Virus record (IMG/VR): IMGVR_UViG_3300029404_000062
DNA length: 64,000 nt
Direction: 5' to 3' (one strand)
Origin: a virus
Part shown: in pieces, positions 2,674 through 56,508 of the stretch
Layout of the letters: the number at the start of each line of letters is the position of its first letter
Numbering within the stretch: position 1 is the first letter of the stretch
Translations under genes and position numbers: made by a program
The notes under the pieces: model-generated
The model's database searches: none
What the model was told of the DNA's origin: nothing
The model's input: only the letters and a program-made list of their open reading frames with translations

Positions 2674-4059
2674 TTAAACAGCGTAACCCTTGTTCTTAAT
2701 GACCTCCACGACCTGAGAGACGTACTTCTGGCAGGTGTCGTGGTCGGGGGCTTCCACCATCACGCGCACAAGCGGCTCAGTGCCGGACTCACGGACGAGG
2801 ATACGGCCGGTATCGCCCAGTGCTTCTGCAACGGCCTTGACGGCCTCCTGCACCGCCGGGTCGTTCTGTGCGGCCTTTTTGTCGGTGACGCGGACATTCT
2901 CCAGAACCTGCGGATAAATCTTCAGGGGCTCAGCCAGCTTGCTCATAGGCATCTTCTTGGCCAGCATAACTTCCATCATCTTGAGACTGGTCAGGATGCC
3001 GTCACCGGTGCTGGCGTACTTAGAGAAGATGATATGACCGCTCTGCTCGCCGCCGATACGGCAGCCGTTCTTAGCCATGTACTCGTAGACGTACTTGTCG
3101 CCCACAGCAGTCTTAGCGTAGCCAATGCCCTGCTCATCGAACGCCTTGTAGAGGCCAAAGTTGGACATAACAGTCGTGACTACGGTGTTGTTCATCAGCT
3201 CGCCGTGCTCCTTCATGTAGCAGCCGTAGATGTACAGAATGTGGTCGCCGGTGATGACATTGCCTTTCTCGTCCACGCACAGGCAGCGGTCAGCATCGCC
3301 GTCGAAGGCAAAGCCGACATCCAGACCGTTCTCCACCACAAACTTCTGCAGACCCTCAATATGGGTAGAGCCAGCATTGTTGTTGATATTCAGGCCATTG
3401 GGCTTGTTGTTGATAACATAGGTATCTGCACCCAGAGCATCGAAAACACTCTTAGCGATATTCCAGCTTGCACCGTTGGCACAGTCCAGACCGACCTTGA
3501 CGCCTTTGAAGGAGTAGATACCCAGAGAAATCAGATAACCCATATAACGGTTGCGACCTGCCACATAGTCCACCGTACAGCCGATGTGCTCGCGATGGGC
3601 AAAGGGCAGCTCCGGCCAGTCCTTATCAAACACATGAAGCTTGCCGTCGATGTAGTCCTCCACCAGCAGCAGAGTCTCTTCGGGCATTTTCTCGCCGTAG
3701 CAGTCGATCAGCTTGATACCGTTATCGTAGTAGGGGTTGTGGCTGGCAGAGATCATGATGCCGCAATCGAAATCGTCCACGCGGGCAATGTAAGCCACAG
3801 ACGGCGTAGTAGTGACGTGCAGCAGGTAGGCGTCTGCGCCGGAAGCGGTCAGGCCAGCGACAAGACTATATTCAAACATATAGGAGCTGCGGCGGGTGTC
3901 CTTGCCGATAACGATACGGGCAGGCTCGCTGTTGCCGTTGCGCTTGCGGAGCATATTATAATACCAGCCAAGGAAGCGGCCAACTTTGTAGGCGTGGTCG
4001 GCAGTCAGATCAATACCAGCTTCACCACGGAAGCCATCAGTTCCAAAGTACTTTCCCAT
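2674..4059 (-). CDS. glmM: Phosphoglucosamine mutase-like phosphohexomutase.
   Basis: N-terminus MGKYFGTDGFRG and active-site loop GIMISASHNPYYDNGIK (phosphoserine motif) are GlmM hallmarks. Product is ~460 aa. In-frame upstream extension of ORF 2674-4122 ignored; start at MGKYF has RBS GAGGTAA. Confidence 0.75.
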   Translation of the reverse strand: MGKYFGTDGFRGEAGIDLTADHAYKVGRFLGWYYNMLRKRNGNSEPARIVIGKDTRRSSYMFEYSLVAGLTASGADAYLLHVTTTPSVAYIARVDDFDCGIMISASHNPYYDNGIKLIDCYGEKMPEETLLLVEDYIDGKLHVFDKDWPELPFAHREHIGCTVDYVAGRNRYMGYLISLGIYSFKGVKVGLDCANGASWNIAKSVFDALGADTYVINNKPNGLNINNNAGSTHIEGLQKFVVENGLDVGFAFDGDADRCLCVDEKGNVITGDHILYIYGCYMKEHGELMNNTVVTTVMSNFGLYKAFDEQGIGYAKTAVGDKYVYEYMAKNGCRIGGEQSGHIIFSKYASTGDGILTSLKMMEVMLAKKMPMSKLAEPLKIYPQVLENVRVTDKKAAQNDPAVQEAVKAVAEALGDTGRILVRESGTEPLVRVMVEAPDHDTCQKYVSQVVEVIKNKGYAV

Positions 4060-4239
4060 TTCTTGATTACCTCGTTCCCAAAAGTGAACTTTTAATAGTG
4101 TATATGCTTTTCCCCGTCGCACGATGCTACCTGCGAAAAAGCATTGTCATCCGCATAGTGCATCGAATCAGGGACACTGTGAATTTAGTATAGCACAATT
4201 CTTGAAGCAAATCACCCTTTCTGCAGATTTTCTCCCTGC

Positions 4240-6842: not shown

Positions 6843-7559
6843 TCAATCTGTTCCGGCACTCTGCCCGACTTCGGGGACCGCTTTCCCTGTCAGTATTCCC
6901 ATTGACACATATTCGTCCATCTGCTGAACTTCGGATTCCTTCAGATGTTCTTCTACAGGCACGCCAAAAGTACCCGCAATATCATCCGGGTAAAATCCCT
7001 TTCTGCTGCTTGCAGGCTTTTCTTCTGGTGTGTTATTCGGAGAATCGGCGGCACCTTTCTTCCGTCTCTGTCCTTCATGGAAAATCTCAGGCACGAGCAA
7101 ATCAAAGACATACAGGGTTTCACCCTCAAAGGTGATCCTGTATCCCAGCATCTTGTACCGGCATTCGCTATCCCAGCCCATCTCCTTATAGACCAGCTCG
7201 GCAAAAGGCTTGCAGGACATTTTTCTGCTCTTTCGCTTATCCGGTTTTGCAACGCACCAGCGCAGAGCGTCTTTATCATTTTCATCACAGCCGCGCACGA
7301 CAATTCGCTTCAAGTCACTGTTGAACATGACATGAACATAGACCACATCTTCCAGACCAGTAATGCAGGCCGTGTTGAATGTGATGCTGTCCTTGCGGAT
7401 CACGATGGCGGGGTCACGAAGATGAGCAAACAACTCTTTTCGCACGACCTGATATCCATCATACGAAAAGGTACTCTCCAGTTCTTCTGCTCTTGTGTCT
7501 CTATCATTTTGTTCTGCCTGCTCTTCTGATGGCAGAATTACAGTATTTTCCTCATTCAT
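6843..7559 (-). CDS. Stand-alone paralog of the serine-recombinase C-terminal domain (DUF4368-like). Overlaps the stop of recombinase 1 by 8 nt.
   Basis: YDGYQVVRKELFAHLRDPAIVIRKDSITFNTACITGLEDVVYVHVMFNSDLKRIVVRGCDENDKDALRW aligns along its length with the rec1 C-terminus (LTGYEVVRAQYFSTMQNPAMTIFNGKLRFNTACLKKFETVEYVELLLNSVDRCVAIRPCEKSNPNAIRW). Confidence 0.55.
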   Translation of the reverse strand: MNEENTVILPSEEQAEQNDRDTRAEELESTFSYDGYQVVRKELFAHLRDPAIVIRKDSITFNTACITGLEDVVYVHVMFNSDLKRIVVRGCDENDKDALRWCVAKPDKRKSRKMSCKPFAELVYKEMGWDSECRYKMLGYRITFEGETLYVFDLLVPEIFHEGQRRKKGAADSPNNTPEEKPASSRKGFYPDDIAGTFGVPVEEHLKESEVQQMDEYVSMGILTGKAVPEVGQSAGTD

Positions 7560-9393
7560 CTATTTCAGTCCATCCTTCCATTATCTCTTCCGCTTCATGG
7601 AGCAGCGCATTCAGACTATCTGCGGTAAATGTATTCATTTCTTCTATCTCTGTTGCCGGCCGAAGCACATCCCAGTTCCCGGCATAATGTTCCTGCTGTA
7701 AAATACCGACCTGCGCAATACTTGTGATTGGCTGTCCAAAAGTCCCTGCCCATTCCGGTGGGAAAATGTAAATCGTTTTTTTGACCGTTTCGCCCTCTGC
7801 TTCTTCCGAATTTTCCTTTGGCGGCAGAACGATTTCTTCAACCTTGATCATCTCCGGCTCGTCCAGTTCAAAGAGCATCAGCTTATTATCGCCGTCCTCC
7901 ACGAATTGCCCACGGAACCGATAACGCAGATCTTCATCCCACTCCATGATGTCAAAAAGAGTCTTTGCCAGACCACGGCAGCCAAGTGTGCTGGCACACC
8001 AGCGTCCTTCTTTCAGCCGACCCCAGCGGATTGCATTGGGATTGCTCTTTTCACACGGACGGATAGCAACGCAGCGGTCAACGGAATTTAACAACAGCTC
8101 CACATATTCCACAGTTTCAAACTTTTTCAGGCAGGCTGTGTTGAAACGCAGTTTTCCATTGAAAATCGTCATTGCAGGGTTCTGCATCGTTGAGAAATAC
8201 TGCGCCCGAACCACCTCATATCCCGTCAGGTCGAGCCGTTTTTTCACATCTGCCACGACAGAATCGTCCGGCTCCTGCATCACACTTTCGGATGCTTCCC
8301 GGTATTCTTCAGCCGAAAAGCCTGTCCAGTCCTTATCGAAAGGAACATATCCTCGCAGGATTCCATCATCAACCACGCTCAAAACCGGCAGTGGCCGATT
8401 TTTCCTCGTGTAACTTCTGGATGCTCTCAGGTGATTGGCAGCGTTGAATACATCTCTGGACACGATTGCCTCATGGTGGTCCCGCTGCCGATACTGCGTC
8501 CGATCATTGTTGTTTTTCTTGGATTTATGCGTCAAAAAATTTGGCGTGTAAGTCTTTCGAGCCAGTACATCTCCGCAATGACGCTCATTTGCAATGACAC
8601 CCGCCAATGTGCTCGGATTCCATTCCGTGTTCCCCGGCTTCGTCTTCCGCCCGTATTCCGTTAGGAGTTCTGCAATTTCCTTAAGAGAAAATCCGTTCAA
8701 GTACAGGTAATAAATCACCTTTACCGTCTGGGCTTCCTCTGGGTTGACCACCAGGTTGCCTTCCTCGTCCTGATCATATCCCAGCAGAGCCGGAGTCAGG
8801 AACAGACCACGGCTAAAGCGCCGGTCAATGGACCAGTTCATAATGATAGACTTGGAATGGGATTCTTCCTCTGCCACTGATGCCAGAATGGTAAGAATCA
8901 TGCGGCCATTGCTGTCCAACGTGTAAATATTGTCGGCTTCAAATTTCACACCTACAGGTGGTGTAAGGTTTTTCAGTGTTTCAATTACAGATAAGCAGTC
9001 TACGATATTTCGTGCAAAACGGGCAATGGACTTCGTAAGAACAAGGTCGATTTTCCCGGCCTTGCAGTCCTCAATCAACTGCTGCATTCCCTTGCGATGT
9101 TCCAGGGATGTGCCGCTGATGCCCTCGTCATCGTAGATGCCGACAAATTCCCATCCCGGCTGCGCCTTGATGTATTCAGTATAATAATTCTTCTGAAGCT
9201 CATACGAGGAAGTCTGTTCATCATTGTCAGTGGAAACACGGACATAGGCTGCGACACGCCGAATAGAGGTGCTTTCTTCAAGCCCCTCCACAGTTTTTGC
9301 CGGGATGACTTCCAGTTCAGAGGCATCCACGCCTTTATACCGATCTCTGATTTTTTGCTTGCGGTCTACCGCTTCCACTTCACTGCTTATCAT
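7552..9393 (-). CDS. Large serine recombinase 1 (resolvase catalytic domain + recombinase domain + zinc-ribbon + C-terminal DUF4368-like domain).
   Basis: N-terminal AAYVRVSTDNDEQ (catalytic Ser) ...KSIARFARN. 613 aa. Confidence 0.85.
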   Translation of the reverse strand: MISSEVEAVDRKQKIRDRYKGVDASELEVIPAKTVEGLEESTSIRRVAAYVRVSTDNDEQTSSYELQKNYYTEYIKAQPGWEFVGIYDDEGISGTSLEHRKGMQQLIEDCKAGKIDLVLTKSIARFARNIVDCLSVIETLKNLTPPVGVKFEADNIYTLDSNGRMILTILASVAEEESHSKSIIMNWSIDRRFSRGLFLTPALLGYDQDEEGNLVVNPEEAQTVKVIYYLYLNGFSLKEIAELLTEYGRKTKPGNTEWNPSTLAGVIANERHCGDVLARKTYTPNFLTHKSKKNNNDRTQYRQRDHHEAIVSRDVFNAANHLRASRSYTRKNRPLPVLSVVDDGILRGYVPFDKDWTGFSAEEYREASESVMQEPDDSVVADVKKRLDLTGYEVVRAQYFSTMQNPAMTIFNGKLRFNTACLKKFETVEYVELLLNSVDRCVAIRPCEKSNPNAIRWGRLKEGRWCASTLGCRGLAKTLFDIMEWDEDLRYRFRGQFVEDGDNKLMLFELDEPEMIKVEEIVLPPKENSEEAEGETVKKTIYIFPPEWAGTFGQPITSIAQVGILQQEHYAGNWDVLRPATEIEEMNTFTADSLNALLHEAEEIMEGWTEIDE

Positions 9394-9403
9394 GTACTTC
9401 CTC

Positions 9404-10381
9404 TCATTCTTCCGGCTTTATGCTCCAATACCACTGGCGCATCTTCCGATAGCTTCGGATGCCGAGTTCCTTTTTTGTATTTTCTGCGGTCCTGCGGCTG
9501 ATACCCTCGTCGCTCATCCGCATATAGATTTCCCTTGATCTCATGTCTCCCTCAGAAAGCAACTTTTTGATCAAGTATGCGGCTTTCTCGGACTTCGATT
9601 CAAAATCTGGCATTCCCGGATCTGCGGATGGATCTGGTGTAACCTCACACTCCAACCACTCAAATCCTGCTTCTGCTGTTATGGAGAACCGAATCTCACC
9701 GTCTGATGGAGCCAGACTATTTTTGATCTGCCGAACAATACGGATGTCTGTGTTTTCCGGGTCGCGCTCTACTTGCAGGACACTCCGGGCCGCAGCCACG
9801 ACATCAATACTGCCCAGGCTCCGGTACAGACCTTTGGTTCCTTCCTTTTTGTTGAGATGCCCAATCAGCACAATGGCACAATCATATACGGATGCCCACA
9901 TACCCAGCCGGTGCATCAACTTTCTTGCTCTGCCCGCAATCTGAAGGTCAGAATCGCTTCCAAGATATGCCTGAATCGGATCGATGACTACCAGACGCGG
10001 CCGGAATTCTATAATAGCCTGCCGGATGCGTTCATCATCCAGCGTCAGCCCGCTGTATGTATCTTCATTTATAAATGCCACATTCCTGCAATCCGCACCG
10101 CACTTTTCCAGTCTGGGCTTGATGGTATCTGACACACCGTCCTCCGAACACTGGTAGATGACTTTCTTCGGCATCCCGATTGGTTTTCCATCCGGGGTGT
10201 TCCCGCCTTTAGAAAGTTCCGCAATCAGGTTCATCATCATTGTGGATTTGCCATCTCCGGGATCTCCTTGCAGCAATGTGATCTTTCCAACTGCAATGAA
10301 CGGATACCACAGCCAGCGAACAGAAGTCGCCTGTACATCACTATATAATGTAAGAATTCCTGTTTCACCTTTTCCTGCCAT
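9404..10381 (-). CDS. RecA-like P-loop ATPase (AAA_25/RepA-like) with C-terminal DNA-binding-like tail. Co-operonic with recombinase 1.
   Basis: Walker A GDPGDGKS and Walker B-like RLVVIDPIQ. Start at MAGKGETG has RBS GGAAAGGAAAG. Its stop lies 11 nt from the rec1 start. Confidence 0.6.
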   Translation of the reverse strand: MAGKGETGILTLYSDVQATSVRWLWYPFIAVGKITLLQGDPGDGKSTMMMNLIAELSKGGNTPDGKPIGMPKKVIYQCSEDGVSDTIKPRLEKCGADCRNVAFINEDTYSGLTLDDERIRQAIIEFRPRLVVIDPIQAYLGSDSDLQIAGRARKLMHRLGMWASVYDCAIVLIGHLNKKEGTKGLYRSLGSIDVVAAARSVLQVERDPENTDIRIVRQIKNSLAPSDGEIRFSITAEAGFEWLECEVTPDPSADPGMPDFESKSEKAAYLIKKLLSEGDMRSREIYMRMSDEGISRRTAENTKKELGIRSYRKMRQWYWSIKPEE

Positions 10382-10631
10382 CGTCTTTCCTTTCCATTTG
10401 CAGTCTTTTCCTACATTTATATTATAGAGAATGCGTGACGATTTGGCTTCCACCTGTCAGGTGGAGTAACACCAAAAATTCCACTTGTCAGATGGAAAAA
10501 TCGCCTAAGACCACATTACCGATGGAGGTGCGGACTATTGCGGTCTTAGAATCTCCTATATTCAGTTGCTATGTGCATCTTCCTGCGAGATAATCGAACT
10601 GCCTTATGCGGGTATCATAAGGAGGAAACAC

Positions 10632-10973
10632 ATGGCAATCGATTATATCGCACTTGGACAGCGCATTAGCGATTTTAGAAACAAACATAATTTTTCACAG
10701 GAGGAGCTTGCTTTCCGCAGTGGCGTTGGAAACAAGCATATCAGCAACATTGAACTTGGAAAAGGAAAACCGAGTCTGGAATCTCTCGTCCAAATTGCAA
10801 ACGTTCTTAATGTATCCGCAGATGACCTGCTAGTGGACAGCCTTACACACTCTACTTCCACTGCTGACACGGAGATTCACCGTCTGCTCTTAGACTGTAA
10901 CGCAATCGAACAGGAGATTCTCACCCGGATGGTAAAGGAGATGAAAGCAATCCTCTACGGTTTGGGAATCTGA
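10632..10973 (+). CDS. XRE-family helix-turn-helix transcriptional regulator.
   Basis: FSQEELAFRSGVGNKHISNIELGKGKPSLESLVQIANVLNVSADDLL is a classic HTH_3 motif. Only plus-strand gene in the island. Confidence 0.7.
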   Translation: MAIDYIALGQRISDFRNKHNFSQEELAFRSGVGNKHISNIELGKGKPSLESLVQIANVLNVSADDLLVDSLTHSTSTADTEIHRLLLDCNAIEQEILTRMVKEMKAILYGLGI

Positions 10974-11134
10974 TTTTGTAACCCGTTGACCACATAACAA
11001 AAAAGCCCGCATAAGCCACAGCTGCACTTCGGCTCAAACCGGGGTGCTGTCTGTGGTTCATGCGGGTCAGGGCAAAAAAAGGAGCCCGCCAGCGTACCAT
11101 GTAGATTCTACACAGTGCGCCAGCGGGCAAAATT

Positions 11135-11653
11135 TCACTTCAATAGATCAGACAGACTGTATTCTCCCTTCGGAATGTTTGCAGTTCTCCGATATTCCTT
11201 TATTGCACTTATCAATGTTTGTGGATTACTGAAATAGTCCTTTACAAAATCATATGACTTCACATCATGCATACGCAGATCCGTCTTACAAAATTCGCTC
11301 GGTTTCTTCCCAGAACGCTTAAACTTGTCATAAGCTCCTTCACTATGGATGATCAGCATTTCTATTTCTGGTGCTGTAATGATATTTATGACATCAACCT
11401 TATGTTCGTAAGCCTTGCTAAGACGAAAATCTTCTCTGCGAGAATCCAAAATCCGAATCACGGAAATTTGGTCATCAAAGCCTTTACGCAAGTAACGCTC
11501 CTCAAATCGCTTTGCACTTCGGCAGCGGATAACACTTTCGTCCAGCATTTCTTCCCTTGAAAAAATCAAAAGGTCATTATCCACAAGAATATCAATAATT
11601 GCGGACTCTGCAGAGCCCTCGCATATACACGCTTTATATTTTGCTAATTTCAT
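11135..11653 (-). CDS. Small DUF4276/RloB-like (TOPRIM-related) protein, partner of the AAA_21 ATPase.
   Basis: N-terminus KACICEGSAESAIIDILV resembles the xLVEGxTEExFV TOPRIM-like start of DUF4276 proteins. 172 aa, low GC (~38%). Separated from the upstream ATPase gene by 13 nt. Confidence 0.45.
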   Translation of the reverse strand: MKLAKYKACICEGSAESAIIDILVDNDLLIFSREEMLDESVIRCRSAKRFEERYLRKGFDDQISVIRILDSRREDFRLSKAYEHKVDVINIITAPEIEMLIIHSEGAYDKFKRSGKKPSEFCKTDLRMHDVKSYDFVKDYFSNPQTLISAIKEYRRTANIPKGEYSLSDLLK

Positions 11654-11665
11654 TTCGCCGCCTCC

Positions 11666-12817
11666 TTAGTGTATTGAAGCAGCCAAATTTTTCTTCAAGC
11701 GCATATATGCCTCATATGCAGGAGTTGTTCCCTCAAGAAAACCGCTTTGATAGGCATCACTCTTTTTAATGTCATTGCGCTTTAAAATATTGCTCAAGTT
11801 ATCAGCTGTGATTCCGTTACGGTTTCTAACGATATAGATTCCATCATTTCGGTCATATTCATCCAGCAATTCTGGATAGTGCGTTGTAAAAATCAGTGTT
11901 CCACCGTTTCTGTTCAAACGGCTATCCATAAAGAAGCGTACTAAAGTCGTGACAATTTCTTTATTAAAATGGTTTTCGATTTCATCCACCAGAAGGTATC
12001 CACCGGACTGAAGAACCTCTTTTACCATTGAAAAAGTAATGATACCCTTGATTGTGCCGGAAGACAGATACTGTTCAAGATCCACTGCATTGTTCAAAGT
12101 GATCTCATCTTCACCCTTAAATTTCAGGTGAATAAAGGTTTTTCCATCTGTTTCTTCAAAACACAATTTTTCAATGGTCGGATCAAGAAAAGCTATCACT
12201 TCGAGTGGGATGTCATCTGTAAATGGAAGGACATTCACATTTGTATAAGAAAGCAGGCTGAATACTTCAACCTTATCATTTGTCTTTTTATTATGAGCAA
12301 TAATCAAGCTAACATCGTCCGGAAGGAACGCTTCATCATTATTCCGAACTGCAGCCGGCTCTATTCCGGTAAAATCCGTCAGATATTTTTTCGACTTTAC
12401 GCTGGCAATCGGTTTCTCCCACATTTTTTCGGCCAGAATAGAGTAATTATAATCTCCCGCTTTTGCTTTCTTTGCCACAATCACAGTCTCCAGGCAGCAG
12501 ACGTATTTGCGTTCATCATAAAAATATGTGCGAATCGTTGCCTTCTCAGTTCCTCCAAGAATGCTCTTTGCTTCCACATGATTAATGGGCTCATTTTTAA
12601 CAATGCTCAAGGCCAGATTGATAACTTTCAGCACGGATGTTTTTCCAGACGCATTGATGCCAATAAAAGCACAAGCGGAATGAAGGTAGTAATTATCCTT
12701 CATCCTATACAGGCGATCTTTATCATCCTCACTTACACGCTGTTGGGTATAAAAGCAGATATCAAGATCTTCCTTAAACAGTGGAAGTCCTTGTGCCGTG
12801 ATACGAAGTATTTTCAT
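11666..12817 (-). CDS. AAA_21/ABC-type ATPase (OLD/AbiL-like ATPase component).
   Basis: Walker A GINASGKTS, Walker B LLVDEIENHF, followed by TTHYPELL (H-loop). 383 aa, low GC. Confidence 0.65.
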   Translation of the reverse strand: MKILRITAQGLPLFKEDLDICFYTQQRVSEDDKDRLYRMKDNYYLHSACAFIGINASGKTSVLKVINLALSIVKNEPINHVEAKSILGGTEKATIRTYFYDERKYVCCLETVIVAKKAKAGDYNYSILAEKMWEKPIASVKSKKYLTDFTGIEPAAVRNNDEAFLPDDVSLIIAHNKKTNDKVEVFSLLSYTNVNVLPFTDDIPLEVIAFLDPTIEKLCFEETDGKTFIHLKFKGEDEITLNNAVDLEQYLSSGTIKGIITFSMVKEVLQSGGYLLVDEIENHFNKEIVTTLVRFFMDSRLNRNGGTLIFTTHYPELLDEYDRNDGIYIVRNRNGITADNLSNILKRNDIKKSDAYQSGFLEGTTPAYEAYMRLKKNLAASIH

Positions 12818-12914
12818 TTTTCAATCCCCCTTCTAAAAACGGCTTTTCCGTTTTTATTTTTCACTATTCTTATTATACCCCACCTAAAAGAAATTATCAA
12901 CGATTTTTCCGTTT

Positions 12915-13316
12915 TTATTTTCTTCTATATCTCAAACTCCGGTAAGCATCCTGTATGAAGCCCACAAACTCAGGACTCATCGTCTCCACGATATGTTTGC
13001 CGTCCACCCCTCGCAGCATCTCTACGGCGATCTGCGCCACATCGCTCTTGTCCTGTTCCATCCGTCTCAAAGCATCTGCCACCGCCTCATCAATGAACGC
13101 AGCGAGCTTTGCTCCTTCAATAATGCTTTGTACCGGCATCGGTGCGCCATCTTCACCCGCCAGCCGGATGACTTTTGGTTCTATGATCTCCCCGATCTTA
13201 CGCAGTGCTTCATCCTCCGGCATCTGCCGCAGATACCCTTTCATGGTGCTTACGACCATTATCTCCAGCGGTGTTGTCCCGTAATCCTCAACGGAAAGCC
13301 ACGATAACCTTTTCAC
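12915..13316 (-). CDS. Hypothetical protein (133 aa).
   Basis: ORF only; no recognisable motifs. Confidence 0.3.
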   Translation of the reverse strand: MKRLSWLSVEDYGTTPLEIMVVSTMKGYLRQMPEDEALRKIGEIIEPKVIRLAGEDGAPMPVQSIIEGAKLAAFIDEAVADALRRMEQDKSDVAQIAVEMLRGVDGKHIVETMSPEFVGFIQDAYRSLRYRRK

Positions 13317-13518: not shown

Positions 13519-15819
13519 TCACACAGCTTCTCCACGTTCCCGTTTTGCAGCGGTCGTCAGATACCGGCGATACTGGATGCTGAAGCCATGCACTTTGTAC
13601 GGTGCATCCACATACACCACCGTACCGTTGAGGTCGCTCCGCTTGAATCCCATGAAGCTGGTCAATGTTCTGCGATTGCCCTTCGTCGTCAGCGTTACAC
13701 CGAAGTTCGTCTTGTAGGTGATGATATCGCCCTGCACCACTCCACTCTCGATGAAGGCGCAGTAGATACCTTTCTCAAAATGAAGCATATCTGGGGATTC
13801 GGCGATTCGCTCTGGTGTCAGCTTCAGCTTGCCCTTGGTCACAGCGGACACTCGCCCTTCAATGACCTTACCGTCCACATCTCTCAGAAGACTTCCCTGC
13901 ACATCCAGTCCGTTGACCTTCAGCGGCATTCCGGCCGCGTTGGTATCCGGCAGTTCTTTCAGGCAGGCAAGGAAATATTCAAAGTTCTTCTTCATGATCG
14001 TCAGCACACCCTGCTCTGCCTCGATGGTCTGCTGCTCATGGCGAAGCGTCTTGATGCGCTCCCGCAGGTCATTTACCAGCTCTGTGTAGATTTGGGCCTC
14101 CGAGCCTTCCTCTGCCGAAATCTCATAAAAGGATGCTCCGATGCTGTTCGGGGTCAGCCCGTTCCGGATGTCCGTGTCGATGTCATCGATTGTCACCTCG
14201 CCGTTGGAAAGGGCATCCTTCAGTTCCGCATTATCTTCCAGAGCGGCTTCCCGCAGGGCTGCCACCTGATGGCTGACTGCATCCTGCAGGCGTTCTTCCA
14301 GTTCTTCGATCTGAGAATTCACCGTCTGAAGCCGCTGTACCGAGATGCTGTTGTTCTTTGCCTGCTTCATCGCCTGTTCAAAAGCGTTGTCGAACAGGGT
14401 CACGATCATGGATGCATCGCCGTGCTGTTCGTAATCCCGCTTCATGCTGTAAAGCAGTTCCATGAAGCTCTGCTCCAAAGCGCATTCATAATAGGTTTCA
14501 GAAGGACACCGTTCATTGGCGGCTTTCTTTTCCGCATCCGACATACATCCCTTTTTGCTGCGACAGTACATTTTCTGGTCGGGGCTGCCATTCTTGGGCG
14601 GTGCGTCCTGCCGTTCTCCTGCCTTCCGCTTGCACTTCCAGACAGGATAGGAATAGCTGTACTTTTCGAGGAATTCACCCGTATCCTCCCCTGTCGCTTT
14701 CAGGCTCCTCTCATCCGTGTAGCCATTTGCCACGCCAGTGTACGTCACACGAAAGAATCCTTCACCACAGGGCTTTCCGGCATCCGGTCCATGCTCAAGG
14801 ATTGCCCCACAGCGCAGATTTCCAAAAGGTGAGCCTTTGATGGTGCGGGTCTTTTTCTTTCCGGGACCTTTCGTCATATCCGTCCGGGGCTTCTCGAACA
14901 AAAGCGTCTGCACCTTATCCCAAGTCACCCGGTCGATGATGCCTACATGGTGGTTCTTGACATAGTACCGGGGTGCTTCACCCTTATTGATGCTGGAACG
15001 GTGTGTCAGGAAATCCTTCGTGATGGTCTTCTGCATCTCCACATCGCCTACATATTTCTCATTCCGCAGAACGATCAGGATGGAGCTTGCCCGCCATTTC
15101 TTTCCGTTCACAGTCGTCTTTCCCAGCTCGTTCAATTCTTCTGCGATTTTATTAGCGGTCTGCCCCTTCACGAAGCGTTCAAAGATGTACCGCACCACCT
15201 GCGCCTGTTCCGGTACGATCACCCACTCCTGATTCGGTCCCAGATCATACCCCAGCATCCGCTTCAGATTGATATGCGGAACGCCCGCCTGGAACTTCTT
15301 CTGGATACTCCAGCGGATGTTGTCCGAAATGGAACGGCTCTCATCCTGTGCCAAAGCGGAAAGGATGGTCAGGATCAGCTCGCCTTTGGCATCCAGCGTA
15401 TCGATATTTTCCTTCTCGAAGTACACACCCACAGGCGGCTTCAATTGCCGAAGCTCACGGGTACAGGTCAGGGAATCGATCGTGTTTCGTGCGAATCGGG
15501 AAATGGACTTCGTGACAATGTAGTCCAACTTGCCATCCATCGCGTCCTTCATCATGCGGTTGAATTCCTCACGGTGCTCTCTGTTCGTGCCGGATTTAGC
15601 TTCATCGGCATAGATGCCTGCAAAGATCCATCCAGGTTTTCCTGTAATCAGGTTCTTGTAGAATGCTTTCTGGGTCGTGTAGGATGTCTGCTGGCTTTCA
15701 TCGCCAGTGGACACGCGGCAGTAAGCCGCCACACGGATGTTCGTCTGCTGTTTCAGCTGTCCGCCATTCTGCACTGATCGCACACTGGCAGGGATCACGT
15801 CTACTTTTCTCTGTGCCAT
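13519..15819 (-). CDS. Large serine recombinase 2 (766 aa).
   Basis: AAYCRVSTGDESQ...KSISRFARN resolvase domain; long recombinase/zinc-ribbon/coiled-coil C-terminus. Confidence 0.85.
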   Translation of the reverse strand: MAQRKVDVIPASVRSVQNGGQLKQQTNIRVAAYCRVSTGDESQQTSYTTQKAFYKNLITGKPGWIFAGIYADEAKSGTNREHREEFNRMMKDAMDGKLDYIVTKSISRFARNTIDSLTCTRELRQLKPPVGVYFEKENIDTLDAKGELILTILSALAQDESRSISDNIRWSIQKKFQAGVPHINLKRMLGYDLGPNQEWVIVPEQAQVVRYIFERFVKGQTANKIAEELNELGKTTVNGKKWRASSILIVLRNEKYVGDVEMQKTITKDFLTHRSSINKGEAPRYYVKNHHVGIIDRVTWDKVQTLLFEKPRTDMTKGPGKKKTRTIKGSPFGNLRCGAILEHGPDAGKPCGEGFFRVTYTGVANGYTDERSLKATGEDTGEFLEKYSYSYPVWKCKRKAGERQDAPPKNGSPDQKMYCRSKKGCMSDAEKKAANERCPSETYYECALEQSFMELLYSMKRDYEQHGDASMIVTLFDNAFEQAMKQAKNNSISVQRLQTVNSQIEELEERLQDAVSHQVAALREAALEDNAELKDALSNGEVTIDDIDTDIRNGLTPNSIGASFYEISAEEGSEAQIYTELVNDLRERIKTLRHEQQTIEAEQGVLTIMKKNFEYFLACLKELPDTNAAGMPLKVNGLDVQGSLLRDVDGKVIEGRVSAVTKGKLKLTPERIAESPDMLHFEKGIYCAFIESGVVQGDIITYKTNFGVTLTTKGNRRTLTSFMGFKRSDLNGTVVYVDAPYKVHGFSIQYRRYLTTAAKRERGEAV

Positions 15820-15861: not shown

Positions 15862-18210
15862 TTACTTTCTCCGAATCTGCTTCACATACTGCTTTCTCTG
15901 GCTTCCATTCCGCATCACATGACCATCAAAGTAGCTGGCAGTGTAGCGGTAATCCTCGATGTTGGTATCCATCTCAACTTCCGTTTTGGTGTCATCGAAC
16001 CAGTGGATCGTGTACTTCAGCGGAGAATGGATAGTCATCGAAAGGATAAATGCCTTGCAGTGTTCCTGCGTCATACCGTTCAGAAATTCTATCATTCCTT
16101 CCCGTCCTGCCGGAAGCTGTTTCATCCATTCGAGGGCTTTTTCTCGGCGGTCATAATCCTGTTCCAACTCTTCCCAGTATTCTTCCAGATAGTCAAGCCG
16201 TTCTGTCAGTTTCTGTTCCGATTCTTCGTCTGCTGCTACCGCCTGTTCCAGCTTTTCAATCAGCTGTCTCTTTTCCTCAATGGTGGCTGCATCGATCATC
16301 TCATCACCCAGAAGTTCCAGTCTGGTTTGCATAACATCCACCTGACTCTTCAGCAGACGGATTTTCTTATTCGTGCTCTCGATACTGAGATGGGCCGCCG
16401 AAATCTGCTTTTTATAAAAGGCACGGTCACGTTCCATGAAGTCCAGCTTCTGTATGCTTTCCAGCCGCGACAACATCTGGCTCACAAAGCTGTCCGCTTC
16501 CGGGGTGAAATTTTCATACTGCTCTTTGAACCGTCCACTCATGATGTCTGCAATCTTCACATCATCGTGGATCGGTTTGACCGTCAGCCGGAACCGTTCC
16601 AGAACACCTTTTCGGAATACGCGGATGATCTGTTCCTCATACACCTTTTCTGCATGACAGATCCTCTTTCCATTATTCTGATTGCTGGAAGGGCAGAACC
16701 AAATCGTGTTGCTCCCGCTTGAGTTTCTTACATTATAAAATCGTCCGCATTCTCCACAGATGAGTCTTCCGCTAAAAGCCTTCGGTACATTTAATTTTCC
16801 CAGCCCCCTGCCGTAGTAAGAACTGTTCATTATTCGTATCTCTTGTACTTTTGCAAACAATTCTTCATCGATAATTGCCGGGTGATGGTCTCTGACCAGA
16901 TATTGCGGAACTTCTCCATTATTTATCCGTCTTTCATGGTTTAAGTAGTCCGTAGTATAGCTTTTTTGAATCCGGACTGCCCCTGTGTAACGCTCCGCAC
17001 GAATAATCTGCCCGATCTGCCGTCCAGTCCAGCCATCTTCCAACACACTGTTGAGCTGTCCCTTTTTTGAATTTTTCTTTCGGGCTTCCACTGCCTTTGT
17101 TCGCGGTGGTGGAATTCTATCAAAATTCAAGCTCCTGGCAATCTCTGTATATGCCTTACCTTCCAGAACTTCATGGAAGATTCGCCTGACCACCGCCGCT
17201 TCCTCTTCAACGATTTCAATGTCCTTATACTTATATCCACTTTCAAGGGTAATGACCTTTCCATTGTAGCGGTACCCATAAATGACCGCATTCCTGACTT
17301 CTCCCTTTGGAAAGCGCATCTTATTTCCAAGATTGATATTGCCGGAAATACTCCGACTCTCTTCCTGGGCGATTGCCGCCAGCGTAGTAAGGATAAAATC
17401 ATTCGTCGGGTCAGCGGTGTCCAGATTTTCCTTTTCAAAAAGGATCGTCACGCCACTGTCATGCAGGGCATCCAATGCTTCCATGAAATCTGCCGTGTTC
17501 CGTGCAAAACGGGAAATGGACTTGCACACAATGCGGTCGATTTTTCCCTCTTTGCAGTGCCGGAGCAGTCTGCGGAATCCGGTTCTATTTTCTCTGGATG
17601 TACCGGAGATGCCGTAATCTGAGTACACACCAACTGCATTCCATTCCGGATTGCTTTCAATCAGCTGGTTAAAATAGCGTTCCTGTGTTTCGTAGGAATT
17701 TTCCTGATCACTCGAATCTGTAGAAACGCGGATGTAAGCAGCCACCTTCAGACAGCCATTTTTCTTTTTCGTTGCACGGAACGTAGCCGTGGAGATGAAT
17801 CGGTTGTCCTGTTCCTGTGGTTCTTCATCTGCATGAAAAAGCTGTGAGAACTCACTCTGCATCCCGCTCTGTACTTTTTCTGCGATGTCCGGCTGTGCCA
17901 TGACTTTCCTTGCCGCCAGCGCATTCTGAATCAGTGCGGTAATGCCGGGGTCTACTACTTCTTTTGGTTTTTGTTGAGTAGACCTGTCCTGTTGCGTGTC
18001 AGTCGAGGGTAAAAAGGAAGCCGTGGCAGCTTCCGTACTCTGACGGACTCCTGCCACAGCTTCTTTCGGTTTAAGGGCTGCTGCCAACAGAGCTGAAACA
18101 TCCACGGCAGATGCCGTTTCTCTCTTTTTCTGTTTCTGCTGGACGGTATTTTTGACCGTTGCTTTCTGTAAACTTGCCAGAAAATCAGTTCCTGCACTCA
18201 TAATCTCCAC
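15862..18210 (-). CDS. Large serine recombinase 3 (782 aa) with a ~140-aa N-terminal extension.
   Basis: VAAYIRVSTDSSDQ...KSISRFARN; CGECGRFY zinc-ribbon. Confidence 0.85.
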   Translation of the reverse strand: MEIMSAGTDFLASLQKATVKNTVQQKQKKRETASAVDVSALLAAALKPKEAVAGVRQSTEAATASFLPSTDTQQDRSTQQKPKEVVDPGITALIQNALAARKVMAQPDIAEKVQSGMQSEFSQLFHADEEPQEQDNRFISTATFRATKKKNGCLKVAAYIRVSTDSSDQENSYETQERYFNQLIESNPEWNAVGVYSDYGISGTSRENRTGFRRLLRHCKEGKIDRIVCKSISRFARNTADFMEALDALHDSGVTILFEKENLDTADPTNDFILTTLAAIAQEESRSISGNINLGNKMRFPKGEVRNAVIYGYRYNGKVITLESGYKYKDIEIVEEEAAVVRRIFHEVLEGKAYTEIARSLNFDRIPPPRTKAVEARKKNSKKGQLNSVLEDGWTGRQIGQIIRAERYTGAVRIQKSYTTDYLNHERRINNGEVPQYLVRDHHPAIIDEELFAKVQEIRIMNSSYYGRGLGKLNVPKAFSGRLICGECGRFYNVRNSSGSNTIWFCPSSNQNNGKRICHAEKVYEEQIIRVFRKGVLERFRLTVKPIHDDVKIADIMSGRFKEQYENFTPEADSFVSQMLSRLESIQKLDFMERDRAFYKKQISAAHLSIESTNKKIRLLKSQVDVMQTRLELLGDEMIDAATIEEKRQLIEKLEQAVAADEESEQKLTERLDYLEEYWEELEQDYDRREKALEWMKQLPAGREGMIEFLNGMTQEHCKAFILSMTIHSPLKYTIHWFDDTKTEVEMDTNIEDYRYTASYFDGHVMRNGSQRKQYVKQIRRK

Positions 18211-18367: not shown

Positions 18368-19834
18368 TCAGATCCGGGCAGCATAGTCCAGACTGATCCA
18401 GCCTGCGCCGGATTTCAGCTTACCCCAGCCCTTGACCGAGCCAGTTCCAGCAGATTCTGCGACAATGGTGAACACGCCCTTTCCGGTGTAATAACCGGTC
18501 TTACCGTAATTCGTGCCCGGTCCCTTGCGGATGTTGAGGTCGTTAATGGATACACGGACTGCATACGGCACAGATGCCGCCGGGGTAGTCGGATAGACCG
18601 CCTTGCCGTCCGGGTCAAAGACCGTATAGCCGGGATTTGCATCTGCACATTCTTTGGCATAGACCAGCTCATGGAATGCGCCTTTCTGGGAAGCCGCGTT
18701 CTGCCAGCTCTTACGCACACGATACCAGCCGGAAATCGCGGTGCTGTCAGACGCTTTTGCCAGATCATACTTCGTAAGGTTCCAACGCTCGATGATACTG
18801 CAAAGGTTCTGAACATAGGTGTGGCTGGTCGCATAGCCACCGTCCTTGATCAGCTGCACTGCTTTCTTGTAGTCCGTGCAGCCTGCCAGACCCTCATAGC
18901 GTTTCTTGCTGCCGTTCATTGCCCCCAGCAGATACGCTGCATGGTCGGCAATAGAATCTTCCACACAGTCATATTTGCGAAAATTAGCTGTGATTGTGAC
19001 CATCGAACCGTCCGGGTTCTGTTCCTGCGTTTTCTTCGTGTAGACAGACGTTCCATCCCATGCAGAATTCGGCCAGGTATTACCGGAGAGGTCAGCCTTC
19101 ATGCCAAAGCAGTTATTGGCATTCTGCGCCAACTCGCTCGTGCCATAGCCGGACTCCAGAATGAACTGTGCCATCGACACACAGGCGAGGATGCCGGACT
19201 GTTTCTGGTTCTCCGTGAATAGCGGCCCGATCTTTGTGACTGCTTCTGCCTCAGATAGATTTTTCAGCGAAGATGCCTGCAAGCCGGAAGAACCGCCCAG
19301 TGCCGCCGTCGCCTTTGCCGCCAGATCACCCAGACGGGCATACAGCCAGTCGCCGGGGCAGCTTTTGTTGGCAAACCAGCGATGCACAGTCAGCACCATC
19401 TCGTCTGCTGCCGGAGCATAGTTGAGTGTCTTATTCTTATCCCCCAGCCACAACAGCTTTTTCTTGCCGTTGCGCTGACAAATATCGGTGCAGAGCTTAA
19501 TTAGGGAACCGTACACCGAACTGTTCATGGCATACGGTGCAGTCAGGTCACTGGCGCACTCGATAGTGATAGCTCTCTGGTCATTCGCATTGCTGGAAGA
19601 GCACCAGCTGCGGTTCTTCTCTTCCACGCACAACGAAACCCTGCCGTCCTTGCCGATGCCGTAGTTGCAGCTTGCCTGACGGCTCGTGCTGGTAAAGCAG
19701 CCGCAGATGCTTTCCGCAGAAAGCTGACCCACAACACAATGCGGTGTGATACGGTCGATGCTGTGTGTCCTCTGCCCGGAGTGGTTCGGGGAGAGATTGG
19801 TGTAAACAACAAGTGGACTATTGGTATATCCCAT
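18368..19834 (-). CDS. Modular endolysin: N-acetylmuramoyl-L-alanine amidase (Amidase_2/PGRP) + glucosaminidase domain + C-terminal SH3b-like repeats.
   Basis: Amidase_2-like NHSGQRTHSIDRITPHCVVGQ; glucosaminidase-like FILESGYGTSELAQNANNCFGMK; C-terminal GWYRVRKSWQNAASQKGAF / VRVSINDLNIRKGPGTNYG repeats. Confidence 0.8.
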   Translation of the reverse strand: MGYTNSPLVVYTNLSPNHSGQRTHSIDRITPHCVVGQLSAESICGCFTSTSRQASCNYGIGKDGRVSLCVEEKNRSWCSSSNANDQRAITIECASDLTAPYAMNSSVYGSLIKLCTDICQRNGKKKLLWLGDKNKTLNYAPAADEMVLTVHRWFANKSCPGDWLYARLGDLAAKATAALGGSSGLQASSLKNLSEAEAVTKIGPLFTENQKQSGILACVSMAQFILESGYGTSELAQNANNCFGMKADLSGNTWPNSAWDGTSVYTKKTQEQNPDGSMVTITANFRKYDCVEDSIADHAAYLLGAMNGSKKRYEGLAGCTDYKKAVQLIKDGGYATSHTYVQNLCSIIERWNLTKYDLAKASDSTAISGWYRVRKSWQNAASQKGAFHELVYAKECADANPGYTVFDPDGKAVYPTTPAASVPYAVRVSINDLNIRKGPGTNYGKTGYYTGKGVFTIVAESAGTGSVKGWGKLKSGAGWISLDYAARI

Positions 19835-26997: not shown

Positions 26998-27666
26998 TCA
27001 GCCGTTTGCAAACTCTACGATCAAGCGTCCGTCACCATCCATTGAAAAGATGAGCTTCAGACCATCCTCGGTGGTGAAGGCAAGATAACCGTCATCCGTA
27101 ACCGTACAGTTCAAAAGATTTTCGATGAATTTCTGGATGGTGCTGGATTCCGACTTGTCACTGAAGCCGAGTCCATCCTCCGACACAACGGCAAAATAGC
27201 CATCATCCGTGATATACACTTCCAGCAGTCCCTTGCGGATGGCTTCCACCACGCCAGCGTAGGTATAAGTGGCGATCTTGCCGTTGTTGATGGCTGCCCG
27301 CTCCACCTTCAATGTGAGAGAGAACGACCCAAGGACATCCCCTGCTGCGCTGAGCATAACAACATCCAGCGGAAACCGCCCGGCCTGTGCGGTCATGAAG
27401 GTCGTGATTGTAAAGACGACCGCCCCATTTTCAACAAACACAAGGTCGGATGCCGTCTCGCTGGTGTAATGAAAGATCGTGCCGTCCGGTCTGGTGCCGG
27501 AACAGGCAACAATGCAGTCCTGCGGTACAGAATACTGTACCGAGTTGTTATACAGGACACATCTGACTTTCCGTGCCCTGTTATCATATTGTTTGACCGG
27601 AACTGTCACTGGAATGAGATTTTCCGTCAGCGACAGTTCCACTTCCTGATAAATGCTTGTGATCAT
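26998..27666 (-). CDS. Phage tail/baseplate structural protein (BppU-like), hypothetical.
   Basis: Position between Tal and the fibres. 222 aa with no enzymatic motifs. Confidence 0.35.
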   Translation of the reverse strand: MITSIYQEVELSLTENLIPVTVPVKQYDNRARKVRCVLYNNSVQYSVPQDCIVACSGTRPDGTIFHYTSETASDLVFVENGAVVFTITTFMTAQAGRFPLDVVMLSAAGDVLGSFSLTLKVERAAINNGKIATYTYAGVVEAIRKGLLEVYITDDGYFAVVSEDGLGFSDKSESSTIQKFIENLLNCTVTDDGYLAFTTEDGLKLIFSMDGDGRLIVEFANG

Positions 27667-54868: not shown

Positions 54869-54897
54869 GGTATGTTCTCCTTTGTTTTTTCCTTGTT

Positions 54898-54996
54898 TTC
54901 CCTTTCGGTATGTGCATATTACCGTCAGGTGCGGATAATAGCAAGGATATAAAAGAACATATATTCGACAAATATCGAGAGGAATGATCGTGTACA
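54898..54996 (-). repeat. Promoter/leader cassette copy 7.
   Basis: CCCTTTCGGTATGTGCATATTACCGTCAGGTGCGGATAATAGCAAGGATAT...GATCGTGTACAT. Confidence 0.5.
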
Positions 54997-55100
54997 TTTC
55001 TGCAGTTTATCCGCTTGATAATGTACATTTTCAGAGTTAATATCGTTACAATGAAAGAGGGTCTCGCATATTTTCCGTCCCCCATTGGGAGCTTGGGAGC

Positions 55101-56285: not shown

Positions 56286-56327
56286 AATTCATCGCTCCTT
56301 TTCGTTCATTTGTTTTTGTGCATCCCG

Positions 56328-56398
56328 ATGTTCTTTTCGGTAGCACATATATCACTCTAAAACGGATGAATAGCAAGGCCATTTCCCGATATTCTTCA
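56328..56398 (-). repeat. Promoter/leader cassette copy 8 (diverged).
   Basis: CTTTTCGGTAGCACATATATCACTCTAAAACGGATGAATAGCAAGGCC. Confidence 0.4.
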
Positions 56399-56508
56399 TG
56401 TTCGACCATTTACACAAGGGACCGCAAAATCTGTTGTGTAAATAGGACCAATATGTAAGCCCACCATATCACCAGGTCGCTTTCTACCTAGTAATATAGC
56501 GGGCCAGT

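Follow-up and report, generated by a model that had tools for sequence, protein, structure and literature searches.

Several described systems pair an ATPase with a TOPRIM protein. PARIS is one precedent for this combination (PMC11464382), P2 OLD acts as a tRNase (bioRxiv 10.64898/2026.07.10.737580), and TOPRIM_OLD toxins are neutralised by AAA ATPases in the NetFlax pairs from Firmicutes, whose toxin and antitoxin roles were validated in E. coli and for which an Abi function was proposed (PMC10440598). This logic is already well established, and the locus described here adds no new principle to it. In the window analysed (the whole stretch of 64,000 nucleotides of IMG/VR virus record IMGVR_UViG_3300029404_000062), positions 11135-12923 probably constitute a self-contained anti-phage module with two genes, of the 'ABC ATPase + TOPRIM nuclease' kind (OLD/PARIS/AbiL-RloAB superfamily), carried as accessory cargo of a prophage. 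An earlier note on this DNA considered the pairing not to be an established named system. This is half right: the architecture is that of AbiL, RloAB and PARIS, and AAA + TOPRIM_OLD pairs have already been validated as toxin-antitoxin systems (PMC10440598).

DNA homology with about 85 unrelated loci is confined to this stretch of ~1.8 kb and its two genes; the edge is sharp at 12920-12923, and in other contexts the sequence diverges directly past the stop codon of the small gene. The conserved unit therefore does not coincide with the bounds of 10500-12850 proposed before. Its GC content of 38.8% is the lowest of any 1.8-kb stretch in the window (mean 51.7%, standard deviation 3.5%), which confirms the reported dip, but the flanks measure 48.7-50.1% and not ~57%. 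The ATPase gene lies directly upstream of the small gene at 105 of 105 loci, always in this order, the identities of the two proteins across loci are correlated with r = 0.97, and the pairing persists in members at 36-41% identity. The suggestion of a mobile two-gene unit is thus borne out by the strict pairing and by the confinement of homology to the cassette. Both genes belong to one operon with the AbiL-type order, separated by 12 nt (13 nt had been given) that contain a ribosome binding site (TAA, GGAGG, then ATG), and the small gene is predicted to be translationally coupled to the ATPase gene. No third conserved gene was found next to the cassette in the neighbourhoods of cassette-carrying loci, and no recombination motifs were detected at the cassette's termini. 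We take a 276-aa antisense ORF (12128-12958, + strand) to be an artefact that stems from the low GC content of the coding strand.

Table 1. Positions of the cassette genes, of putative regulatory elements and of neighbouring features in the window
Feature	Position	Strand	Remarks
XRE/HTH_3 regulator, 113 aa	10632..10973	+	Pfam HTH_3 1.3e-15; convergent with cassette
Two tandem intrinsic terminators	10996..11128	-	3' of small gene; RNA fold, inverted repeat
172-aa protein, unannotated family	11135..11653	-	Candidate minimal OLD/RloB-like TOPRIM nuclease with C-terminal helical region
383-aa ABC-type ATPase (AAA_21, AbiLi-like)	11666..12817	-	Pfam, PADLOC, motifs
Putative promoter/leader	12818..12923	-	Travels with cassette; promoter scan, 11/12 matches
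Second operator-like palindrome, TAAAAACGG-AAAAG-CCGTTTTTA	12856-12834		Just before RBS GGGGG
Predicted -10, TATAAT	12877-12872	-	Promoter scan
Predicted -35, TTGATA	12900-12895	-	17-nt spacer to -10

In addition to the palindrome listed in Table 1, an operator-like imperfect palindrome (TAAAAACGG-N6-CGTTGATA) overlaps the -35 element of the cassette, and these promoter and palindrome motifs are kept in 70 distinct upstream sequences. Their sequence suggests a regulatory function for the putative leader palindromes, and the conserved TAAAAACGG palindromes at the promoter may allow the cassette to regulate itself. Downstream of the small gene, the earlier note had seen a single shared inverted-repeat terminator; there are instead two tandem hairpins (11128-11084, then UCCUUUUUUU; 11066-11006, then CUUUUUUGUU) in a region with a predicted RNA fold of -72.8 kcal/mol (z = -6.2 versus shuffles). 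Since the U-tracts of both lie on the - strand, the hairpins mainly terminate the ATPase operon; they are part of the local prophage backbone, outside the conserved cassette. The XRE regulator, which together with the terminator was thought to complete the module, does exist as a convergent gene, but it is, like the terminators, missing from more than 80 other cassette loci, and we rejected it as a part of the module and regard it as a neighbour only. Its likely start, ATG 10632, is preceded by GGAGG and surrounded by an inverted repeat (10584-10597 / 10639-10652), and it is divergent from the AAA_25/serine-recombinase operon (9404-10453, 7552-9393). The gene occurs only in related prophages (loci L032, L099, L102, L104-106 and L108), and it is absent from L052, which has the same backbone, and from the vicinity of the cassette elsewhere.

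A siphovirus-like prophage occupies 18.3-64 kb of the window; its endolysin gene lies on one side of the cassette and its integration end on the other. Large serine recombinases flank it on the left (7552-9393) and on the right (13519-15819, 15862-18210), in agreement with the placement between recombinases noticed before. The pair is present on 19 IMG/VR viral contigs, and the cassette is found in prophages, plasmids and defence islands; at loci L001-L008 its neighbours are a PDC-S62 candidate on one side and RdrA/RdrB-like genes on the other. Homologues of the small protein were not detected in sequenced phage genomes (tblastn, INPHARED), and the cassette region had no megablast match among phages and plasmids; tblastn of the small protein against plasmids gave three matches, and the two inspected represent the same ATPase + small-gene pair. 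Clustering at 50% identity divides the small-protein family into at least 911 clusters, and a single peptide pattern matched it at 358 sites in a collection with one genome per species. Its members are sometimes mislabelled by PGAP as 'N-6 DNA methylase', and we found no experiments on this family in the literature.

All ATPase motifs pointed out earlier (GINASGKT, residues 53-60; LLVDEIE, 275-281; TTHYPELL, 311-318) are present in the 383-aa ORF, and the residues of Walker A (G53-T60), the signature LSSG (251-254), Walker B (LLVDE, 275-279) and the H-loop (H313) are invariant in the family alignment A3. With these four motifs and a Pfam AAA_21 (PF13304) match above the cut-off (2.2e-15, 58 bits, cut-off 27), the protein belongs to the AAA_21/AbiLi-type ABC ATPases. 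Its best PADLOC match is AbiLi (2.5e-31), as expected for the AAA_21-type defence ATPase that had been proposed; AriA came second and clearly weaker (7e-17), and the PHROGs match is phrog_5836 (7.6e-33). Transporter and ABC-F models were matched with E >= 2.6e-4 only, far below their cut-offs, and we rejected a reading as transport or partition ATPase. AbiLi is still the best match (~1e-32) of divergent family ATPases (30-34% identity), compared to 1e-69 to 1e-88 for bona fide AbiLi. The nearest ATPase relatives outside the family are located on plasmids, where all are followed, in the same order, by a PGAP 'RloB family protein', and these pairs score as PADLOC AbiLi + AbiLii. An AF2 model of the ATPase (pLDDT 45.6), built from a shallow alignment (87-95% identity), was discarded.

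The 172-aa protein contains the N-terminal segment CICEGSAESAIIDILV (residues 9-24) from which the earlier note had derived a resemblance to DUF4276 and RloB-like proteins. Searches of Pfam, NCBIfam, PHROGs, PADLOC and PDB with the single sequence and with a 61-sequence profile yielded nothing significant, and the Pfam models Toprim, RloB, DUF4276 and DUF4435 and PADLOC AbiLii were all negative or marginal. Kinship with DUF4276 found no backing (0 of 61 family members match PF14103 at E <= 1), nor did sequence profiles support likeness to RloB, which was matched by one of 61 members at E 0.001 and in hhalign, against an 11-sequence RloB alignment from plasmid AbiL loci, with P = 0.014 and a probability of 3%. 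AbiLii did not match the window protein at E <= 1 and matched one of 61 members at E 0.023, while true RloB partners score 1e-8 to 1e-26 with AbiLii/RloB models. The RloB HMM reached at most 8.3 bits among 256 family members versus 4.7 for shuffled or reversed controls, which is suggestive only, and the reverse search of the family against RloB gave no signal. Pfam OLD-like_TOPRIM was marginal (2 of 61 members at E 0.06), and a viral fold search in BFVD returned nothing significant, the best match by TM being a 'RloB-like protein' (TM 0.42, E 0.29). A relationship to TOPRIM was thus not established by profile searches, where the earlier note had looked for it, and the TOPRIM link of the small protein rests on structure, motifs and context.

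The structure model of the small protein is confident (pLDDT 96.5); its top PDB match in Foldseek is the C-terminal region of OLD, and OLD and PH0156 are the only fold matches that cover ~130 residues including the helical part. Among 61 sequences with 35-59% identity, E12, G13, E16, D70, E98 and K132 are invariant and T93, P95 and E96 nearly so. In the model D70 lies at a strand end and T93..E98 at a helix start, and E12-x3-E16, D70, T93..E98 and K132 parallel E400/E404, D455, T506/E508 and K562 of Bp OLD, with the canonical DxD reduced to D-S. The first three of these motifs are also found in RloB, with a spacing of 56/28 residues versus 58/28 in the small protein; between the two families the motifs are collinear only when aligned greedily. 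Judged from fold and motifs, the protein is most plausibly a TOPRIM-type nuclease: structural and motif evidence of moderate strength suggests the TOPRIM fold, and nuclease activity is predicted.

Alternatively, the small protein might lack catalytic activity and serve the ATPase as an adaptor or regulator; its fold would then be a generic Rossmann/flavodoxin-like one, and its likeness to TOPRIM convergent or spurious. We consider this improbable, because the six invariant residues are almost all acidic or lysine and lie at strand ends and helix starts, where TOPRIM puts its metal ligands, because no fold other than OLD and PH0156 matches into the helical part, and because ATPases of the same clade are otherwise paired with RloB nucleases. 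It is also conceivable that the pair serves the DNA transactions of the mobile element itself (replication, recombination, repair, or processing during excision and integration), with an SMC/RecF-like ATPase and a TOPRIM nickase acting together with the serine recombinases and the AAA_25 protein. The position amid recombinases, with an AAA_25 RepA/DnaB-like gene as neighbour, would agree with this, as would the weak SMC_N match of the ATPase (5e-5, below cut-off) and the occurrence of TOPRIM domains in primases, topoisomerases and RecR. However, the flanks differ entirely in about 85 loci with no recombinase or replication gene kept adjacent, the GC content of the cassette is foreign to the prophage, and the best matches of the ATPase are defence ATPases and not RecF, RecN or SMC, which makes such a role highly improbable.

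A toxin-antitoxin addiction module, in which a nuclease toxin and an ATPase antitoxin stabilise the prophage or mobile element by post-segregational killing without a dedicated anti-phage role, would fit the same data as defence. The operon is bicistronic and translationally coupled, its carriers are prophages, plasmids and islands, and the operator-like palindromes at its own promoter, in a cassette that lacks a regulator gene, would suit autoregulation in the manner of toxin-antitoxin systems. Moreover, TOPRIM_OLD toxins of the NetFlax study are neutralised by AAA ATPases in E. coli, and one such AAA-neutralised system that was screened with E. coli phages gave no defence (PMC10440598). We nevertheless regard pure addiction as rather unlikely, since the closest characterised relatives, AbiL, PARIS, OLD and Gabija, are all anti-phage (PMC11464382, PMC13064643), the pair shares one island with RADAR-like and PDC-S62 genes, and an ATP-hydrolysing sensor-type protein of 383 aa would be an elaborate antitoxin. 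Addiction and defence are not mutually exclusive.

Most likely, the cassette is thus an abortive-infection module directed against phages, its general type being known and its effector family new. Against this reading stand the lack of a significant profile match between the small protein and any TOPRIM family, the reduction of DxD to D-S and the absence of homologues from sequenced phage genomes (INPHARED). In such a module the AbiLi-like ATPase, with its motifs for ATP binding and hydrolysis intact, would oligomerise and keep the 172-aa nuclease, the presumed effector, inactive, acting as sensor/regulator subunit with the combined roles of sensor and antitoxin. During infection, a protein of the phage or aberrantly structured DNA might be the cue that alters the state of the ATPase and thereby frees or activates the nuclease. 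The OLD-like acidic/lysine site of the latter (E12, E16, D70, T93/E96/E98 and K132) could support two-metal cleavage of either tRNA, like AriB and P2 OLD, or DNA, like GajA and Bp OLD, and cleavage would arrest the cell, abort the infection and protect the lysogen population. Sequestration, trigger, substrate and defence phenotype are all predicted here from the described relatives and the conserved residues.

Tentatively, and with somewhat less confidence than in the module as such, the 172-aa protein may found a family so far overlooked, as the smallest OLD/RloB-like TOPRIM nuclease that stands alone, and form with its ATPase a distinct anti-phage system that current finders miss, that is widespread in gut Firmicutes and that has spread as a discrete 1.8-kb cassette. 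If active, this would be an immunity module that prophages commonly carry in gut Clostridia of humans and animals, and because PADLOC v2.0, Pfam, NCBIfam and PHROGs contain no model for the effector family, censuses of gut-bacterial defence built on them would undercount it. An effector of 172 residues would also be a minimal model for building an OLD-type TOPRIM active site and, together with its partner, for how an ABC ATPase restrains a nuclease, and it would test whether tRNA cleavage is general in the OLD/PARIS/AbiL superfamily.

In the OLD nucleases (P2 Old, Ts OLD, Bp/Xcc OLD, GajA) ATPase and TOPRIM are fused, whereas the cassette has two genes and a much smaller TOPRIM-like domain; the 150 best family representatives, none longer than 292 aa, include no fused form. 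PARIS differs in its effector, as the cassette lacks a DUF4435 (PF14491) or PADLOC AriB match and encodes a protein of ~20 kDa compared to ~35 kDa for AriB, and also in its larger ATPase (AriA ~450-470 aa versus 383 aa). The sole link to DUF4435 is the fold-level similarity of the small protein to PH0156, which the literature connects with DUF4435. With DUF4276 (PF14103), to which it does not belong by profile, the small protein shares the N-terminal 'EG..E' past the first strand. Compared by description, the NetFlax AAA(D29):TOPRIM_OLD pairs (C. algidicarnis D44, S. agalactiae D60) are likewise bicistronic, but D44 is RloB-like, which the 172-aa family is not by HMM, and a search for a link to D60 via a Lactobacillales member gave no streptococcal match. 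From AbiL/RloAB the cassette is set apart by a partner that AbiLii and RloB models do not recognise, so that PADLOC, which needs both genes, would presumably not call AbiL here, by the replacement of the second Asp of DxD (D-S) and by the invariant K132 in the helical C-terminal part. It shares with AbiL/RloAB the order of an ATPase gene followed, with overlap or at short distance, by one for a small nuclease-like protein, a similar partner size (179-242 aa for RloB partners versus 172 aa) and the motifs CEGxxE / hhhD / [ST]xPxhExhhh at nearly the same spacing.

The ATPase gene and the gene of the 172-aa protein form one unit. Among 117 loci drawn from species-representative genomes, metagenomes, viral contigs and plasmids, the ATPase gene lay upstream in every one of the 105 whose sequence extends 1.2 kb or more in that direction, an overlapping AAA_21 gene still precedes the small gene in members at 36-46% identity, and identity to the window copies rises and falls together for the two proteins across loci (r = 0.97). 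DNA homology of the window to about 85 loci begins at the stop codon of the small gene (11135-11147), past which the sequences diverge immediately and share no terminal motif, and breaks off abruptly at 12920-12923, some 105 bp before the ATPase gene begins. The pair has no conserved third companion; the most frequent neighbouring gene was seen in 17 of 96 loci. Thus, the mobile unit consists of the promoter, the ATPase and the predicted nuclease. At one Lachnospiraceae locus (L083, 4388-5563) a 391-aa ORF, assigned by visual inspection as an IS110-like transposase, is inserted between the two genes, leaving a gap of 1.7 kb.

Both ORFs claimed in the earlier note are present (see table), with GGAGG in the 12-nt spacing between them, and the small gene is followed on the minus strand by two strong hairpins, each with a U-tract after it (jointly -72.8 kcal/mol; z = -6.2 for the RNA fold against shuffles). 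The cassette (11135-12923) is the stretch of 1.8 kb with the lowest GC content within the window (38.8%; window mean 51.7%, sd 3.5%). The dip is therefore real, but a fall from about 57%, as first described, exaggerates its size, the flanks having 48.7-50.1%.

Features of the cassette, its two proteins and the surrounding prophage (nucleotide positions refer to the window; placements in the 172-aa protein are from its predicted model, and Bp OLD counterparts from PMC6755086)
Feature	Position	Strand	Remark
383-aa ABC-ATPase gene	11666-12817	-	ORF and motif set
172-aa protein gene	11135-11653	-	ORF; ATG 12 nt past ATPase stop codon
Near-consensus promoter TTGATA-17-TATAAT	12900-12872	-	5' of ATPase gene
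Walker A GINASGKT	ATPase residues 53-60
Signature LSSG	ATPase residues 251-254
Walker B LLVDE	ATPase residues 275-279
H-loop	ATPase H313		within TTHYPE
172-aa protein	E12		directly after strand 6-11; Bp OLD E400
172-aa protein	E16		one turn past E12; Bp OLD E404
172-aa protein	D70		directly after strand 63-69; Bp OLD D455
172-aa protein	T93...E98		junction of strand 86-92 and helix 98-104; Bp OLD T506/E508, helical-domain start
172-aa protein	K132		helical part; Bp OLD K562
Large serine recombinases	7552-9393, 13519-15819, 15862-18210		cluster at prophage end
Endolysin	18368-19834		amidase and glucosaminidase domains
Tail	27666-29630
Tape measure	30429-36383		1984 aa
Major head protein	41508-42713
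Terminase (large)	45305-46930
Portal, protease			prophage part of window

Most of the window, from 18.3 kb onward (18368-64000), is a siphovirus-like prophage, which also encodes a LysM/SH3 protein, GDSL-lipase tail proteins and a Prophage_tail protein; a glmM-like host gene (2674-4122) lies outside its end. Two amidoligase-like genes, a 742-aa DNA methyltransferase and a ParB-like/methyltransferase fusion (53933-60765) are candidates for anti-restriction or epigenetic functions. The cassette has the lysis genes on one side and the end of the prophage on the other; in its vicinity are three large serine recombinases, an AAA_25 protein and an XRE regulator. The pair occurs in 19 IMG/VR viral contigs; L099 is essentially the same element as the window prophage, and in the loci L104, L105 and L108 the whole recombinase-cargo block is shared with it, the DNA being about 79% identical. 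The XRE gene and the terminators, counted as parts of the module in the earlier note, are found only in related prophages, and the XRE gene is missing both from L052, a Blautia locus sharing the backbone, and from all other cassette contexts, so that it belongs to the divergent XRE / AAA_25-recombinase unit of the prophage rather than to the defence module. At L052 the 613-aa recombinase, the AAA_25 gene, orf238, orf133 and the cassette are retained; besides the XRE gene, this locus lacks the 766-aa and the 782-aa recombinase, and its small gene is missing the 3' end, a pattern that suggests nested or modular integration units. The divergent promoter region at 10454-10660, between the AAA_25/recombinase operon (-) and the XRE gene (+), has the appearance of a CI/Cro-type switch for the integrative unit, with the XRE start lying between the two arms of a 14-nt inverted repeat (10584-10597 / 10639-10652). 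Immediately upstream of the cassette, a 133-aa ORF (12915-13316, -) with no family match has counterparts beside it (62-70% identity) in L032, L052, L102 and L104-108 alone, all of them related prophages.

Elsewhere, the pair is found on one Ligilactobacillus and two Bifidobacterium plasmids, and in eight loci (L001-L008) a PADLOC PDC-S62 candidate borders it on one side and RdrA/RdrB-like (RADAR-like) genes on the other, a defence-island setting. This island (e.g. L001 4958-16519) includes a PDC-S62-like protein of 567 aa, a TPR protein and an adenosine deaminase among the RdrA/RdrB-like genes; a 448-aa ORF with no PADLOC match and no Pfam match on record overlaps the stop of the small gene by 4 nt.

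The conserved leader (12818-12923, -) contains two operator-like imperfect palindromes with the common half-site TAAAAAC, one overlapping the -35 element and the other between the -10 element and the RBS, and both accompany the cassette in 70 distinct loci. Since no regulator is encoded in the cassette, autoregulation by the ATPase-nuclease complex through these putative operators is an attractive idea; either autoregulation or a 5'-UTR hairpin might explain the palindromes.

The ATPase carries the full ABC-ATPase motif set (Walker A, signature, Walker B, H-loop) and matches Pfam AAA_21 above the gathering cut-off (2.2e-15). In PADLOC, AbiLi, the ATPase of AbiL, ranks best (2.5e-31), followed by AriA of PARIS (7e-17) and numerous other defence ATPases, and AbiLi is the best match (about 1e-32) even for family ATPases that share no more than 30-34% identity with the window copy. 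NCBIfam ABC-F, FtsE and transporter models gave E values of 2.6e-4 or higher, hundreds of bits under their cut-offs; the protein therefore does not group with transport or partition ATPases. All 11 nearest non-family relatives inspected (tblastn, plasmids) show the same gene order, the ATPase coming first and a partner of 179-242 aa next, which PGAP labels RloB family/domain protein in 10 cases and only hypothetical in L118, and three such pairs scanned with PADLOC score as bona fide AbiLi (1e-69 to 1e-88) and AbiLii (1e-8 to 1e-26). The ATPase is a divergent AbiLi relative.

The 172-aa protein had no significant match in Pfam, NCBIfam, PHROGs or PDB. Its sole PADLOC match is marginal (PDC-M01A, E 0.0062) and limited to the window protein among those scanned; it aligns residues 56-117 with positions 116-173 of 566 in PDLC04242, a candidate defence ATPase model whose ATPase region lies further C-terminal, and might hint at a relative in which nuclease and ATPase are fused. 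The family comprises 2108 clusters at 90% and at least 911 at 50% identity, virtually all of the latter being free-standing proteins 165-200 aa long. PGAP names some members "N-6 DNA methylase" (L097 5983-6525, NZ_CP089851.1, WP_095759350.1, Ligilactobacillus salivarius; P0401, Limosilactobacillus mucosae); scans of the L. salivarius member, the window protein and further members, P0401 not included, found no methylase domain, and the label is probably a propagated misannotation. Among 61 members (35-59% identity), E12, G13, E16, D70, E98 and K132 are invariant and T93, P95 and E96 near-invariant. Scanned singly, one of the 61 matched RloB (E 0.001), two OLD-like_TOPRIM (E 0.06), one AbiLii (E 0.023) and none DUF4276; membership in DUF4276, RloB, DUF4435 or OLD-like_TOPRIM as currently modelled was rejected, matches being stray or lacking.

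Fold matches of the predicted model included PH0156 (2p62; 7.9, 136), the Class-2 OLD C-terminal region (6nk8; 6.9, 129), Ts OLD (6p74; 5.5, 101) and GajA (8u7i; 5.4, 123), while most other entries listed, CheY-like receivers for the greater part, lay at about 5-7 and about 85; the best PDB match in Foldseek was the OLD C-terminal region, a weak one (E 0.013, probability 0.44). PH0156 is reported to be the top HHpred PDB match of the lactococcal AriB/DUF4435 protein (PMC11381338). In the model, the invariant residues appear to occupy positions of the OLD nuclease catalytic machinery. Our RloB alignment has invariant E19-G20-x2-E23, D75 and E103, with motif spacings of 56 and 28 residues versus 58 and 28 in the 172-aa family, and a similar third motif (S-x-P-x-F-E-x-W-L-L versus T-x-P-E-I-E-x-L-I-I). 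Profile comparisons were non-significant, both with hhalign between the two alignments (P = 0.014, probability 3%) and with the RloB HMM against the family (at most 8.3 bits; shuffled or reversed controls at most 4.7). Taken together, fold matches, residue placement and RloB-like spacing suggest that the protein is quite probably a minimal OLD/RloB-like TOPRIM nuclease, in which the DxD motif is cut down to D-S. Of the TOPRIM/DUF4276 reading in the earlier note, the OLD-like fold and motif placement of the predicted model support the former half, but DUF4276 found no counterpart and the RloB link stayed below significance; overall, that note's observation was partly to largely confirmed and its interpretation supported in part.

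Whatever goes further than gene content, motifs, linkage and context is what we infer. In PARIS, AriB is held by AriA until a phage protein triggers its release and then cuts tRNA (PMC11464382), P2 OLD is an ATPase-gated TOPRIM tRNase (bioRxiv 10.64898/2026.07.10.737580), and NetFlax describes TOPRIM_OLD toxins neutralised by AAA proteins (PMC10440598). By analogy with these, the most likely mechanism is that the ATPase would be sensor and inhibitor of the small nuclease at once, and that an infecting phage would cause the nuclease to be set free or switched on, whereupon it would cleave tRNA or DNA and so bring the infection to an abortive end. The NetFlax arrangement and the plasmid copies would also suit a pure addiction module, a rather unlikely reading next to the defence-island loci and the anti-phage roles of the closest characterised relatives. 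A non-catalytic partner is conceivable; with six residues invariant across 61 members, we consider this distinctly improbable. That the pair serves the element's own DNA transactions would fit its place among recombinases, and is very improbable for a unit found in so many other contexts.

The putative effector family is unannotated and unusually small; PADLOC-DB 2.0, Pfam, NCBIfam and PHROGs, the libraries against which novelty was judged, have no model for it. The architecture of the pair is already known from AbiL/RloAB, PARIS and OLD, and we regard the pair as a variant of this kind of system, with a presumed role in defence, whose novelty lies in the effector family.
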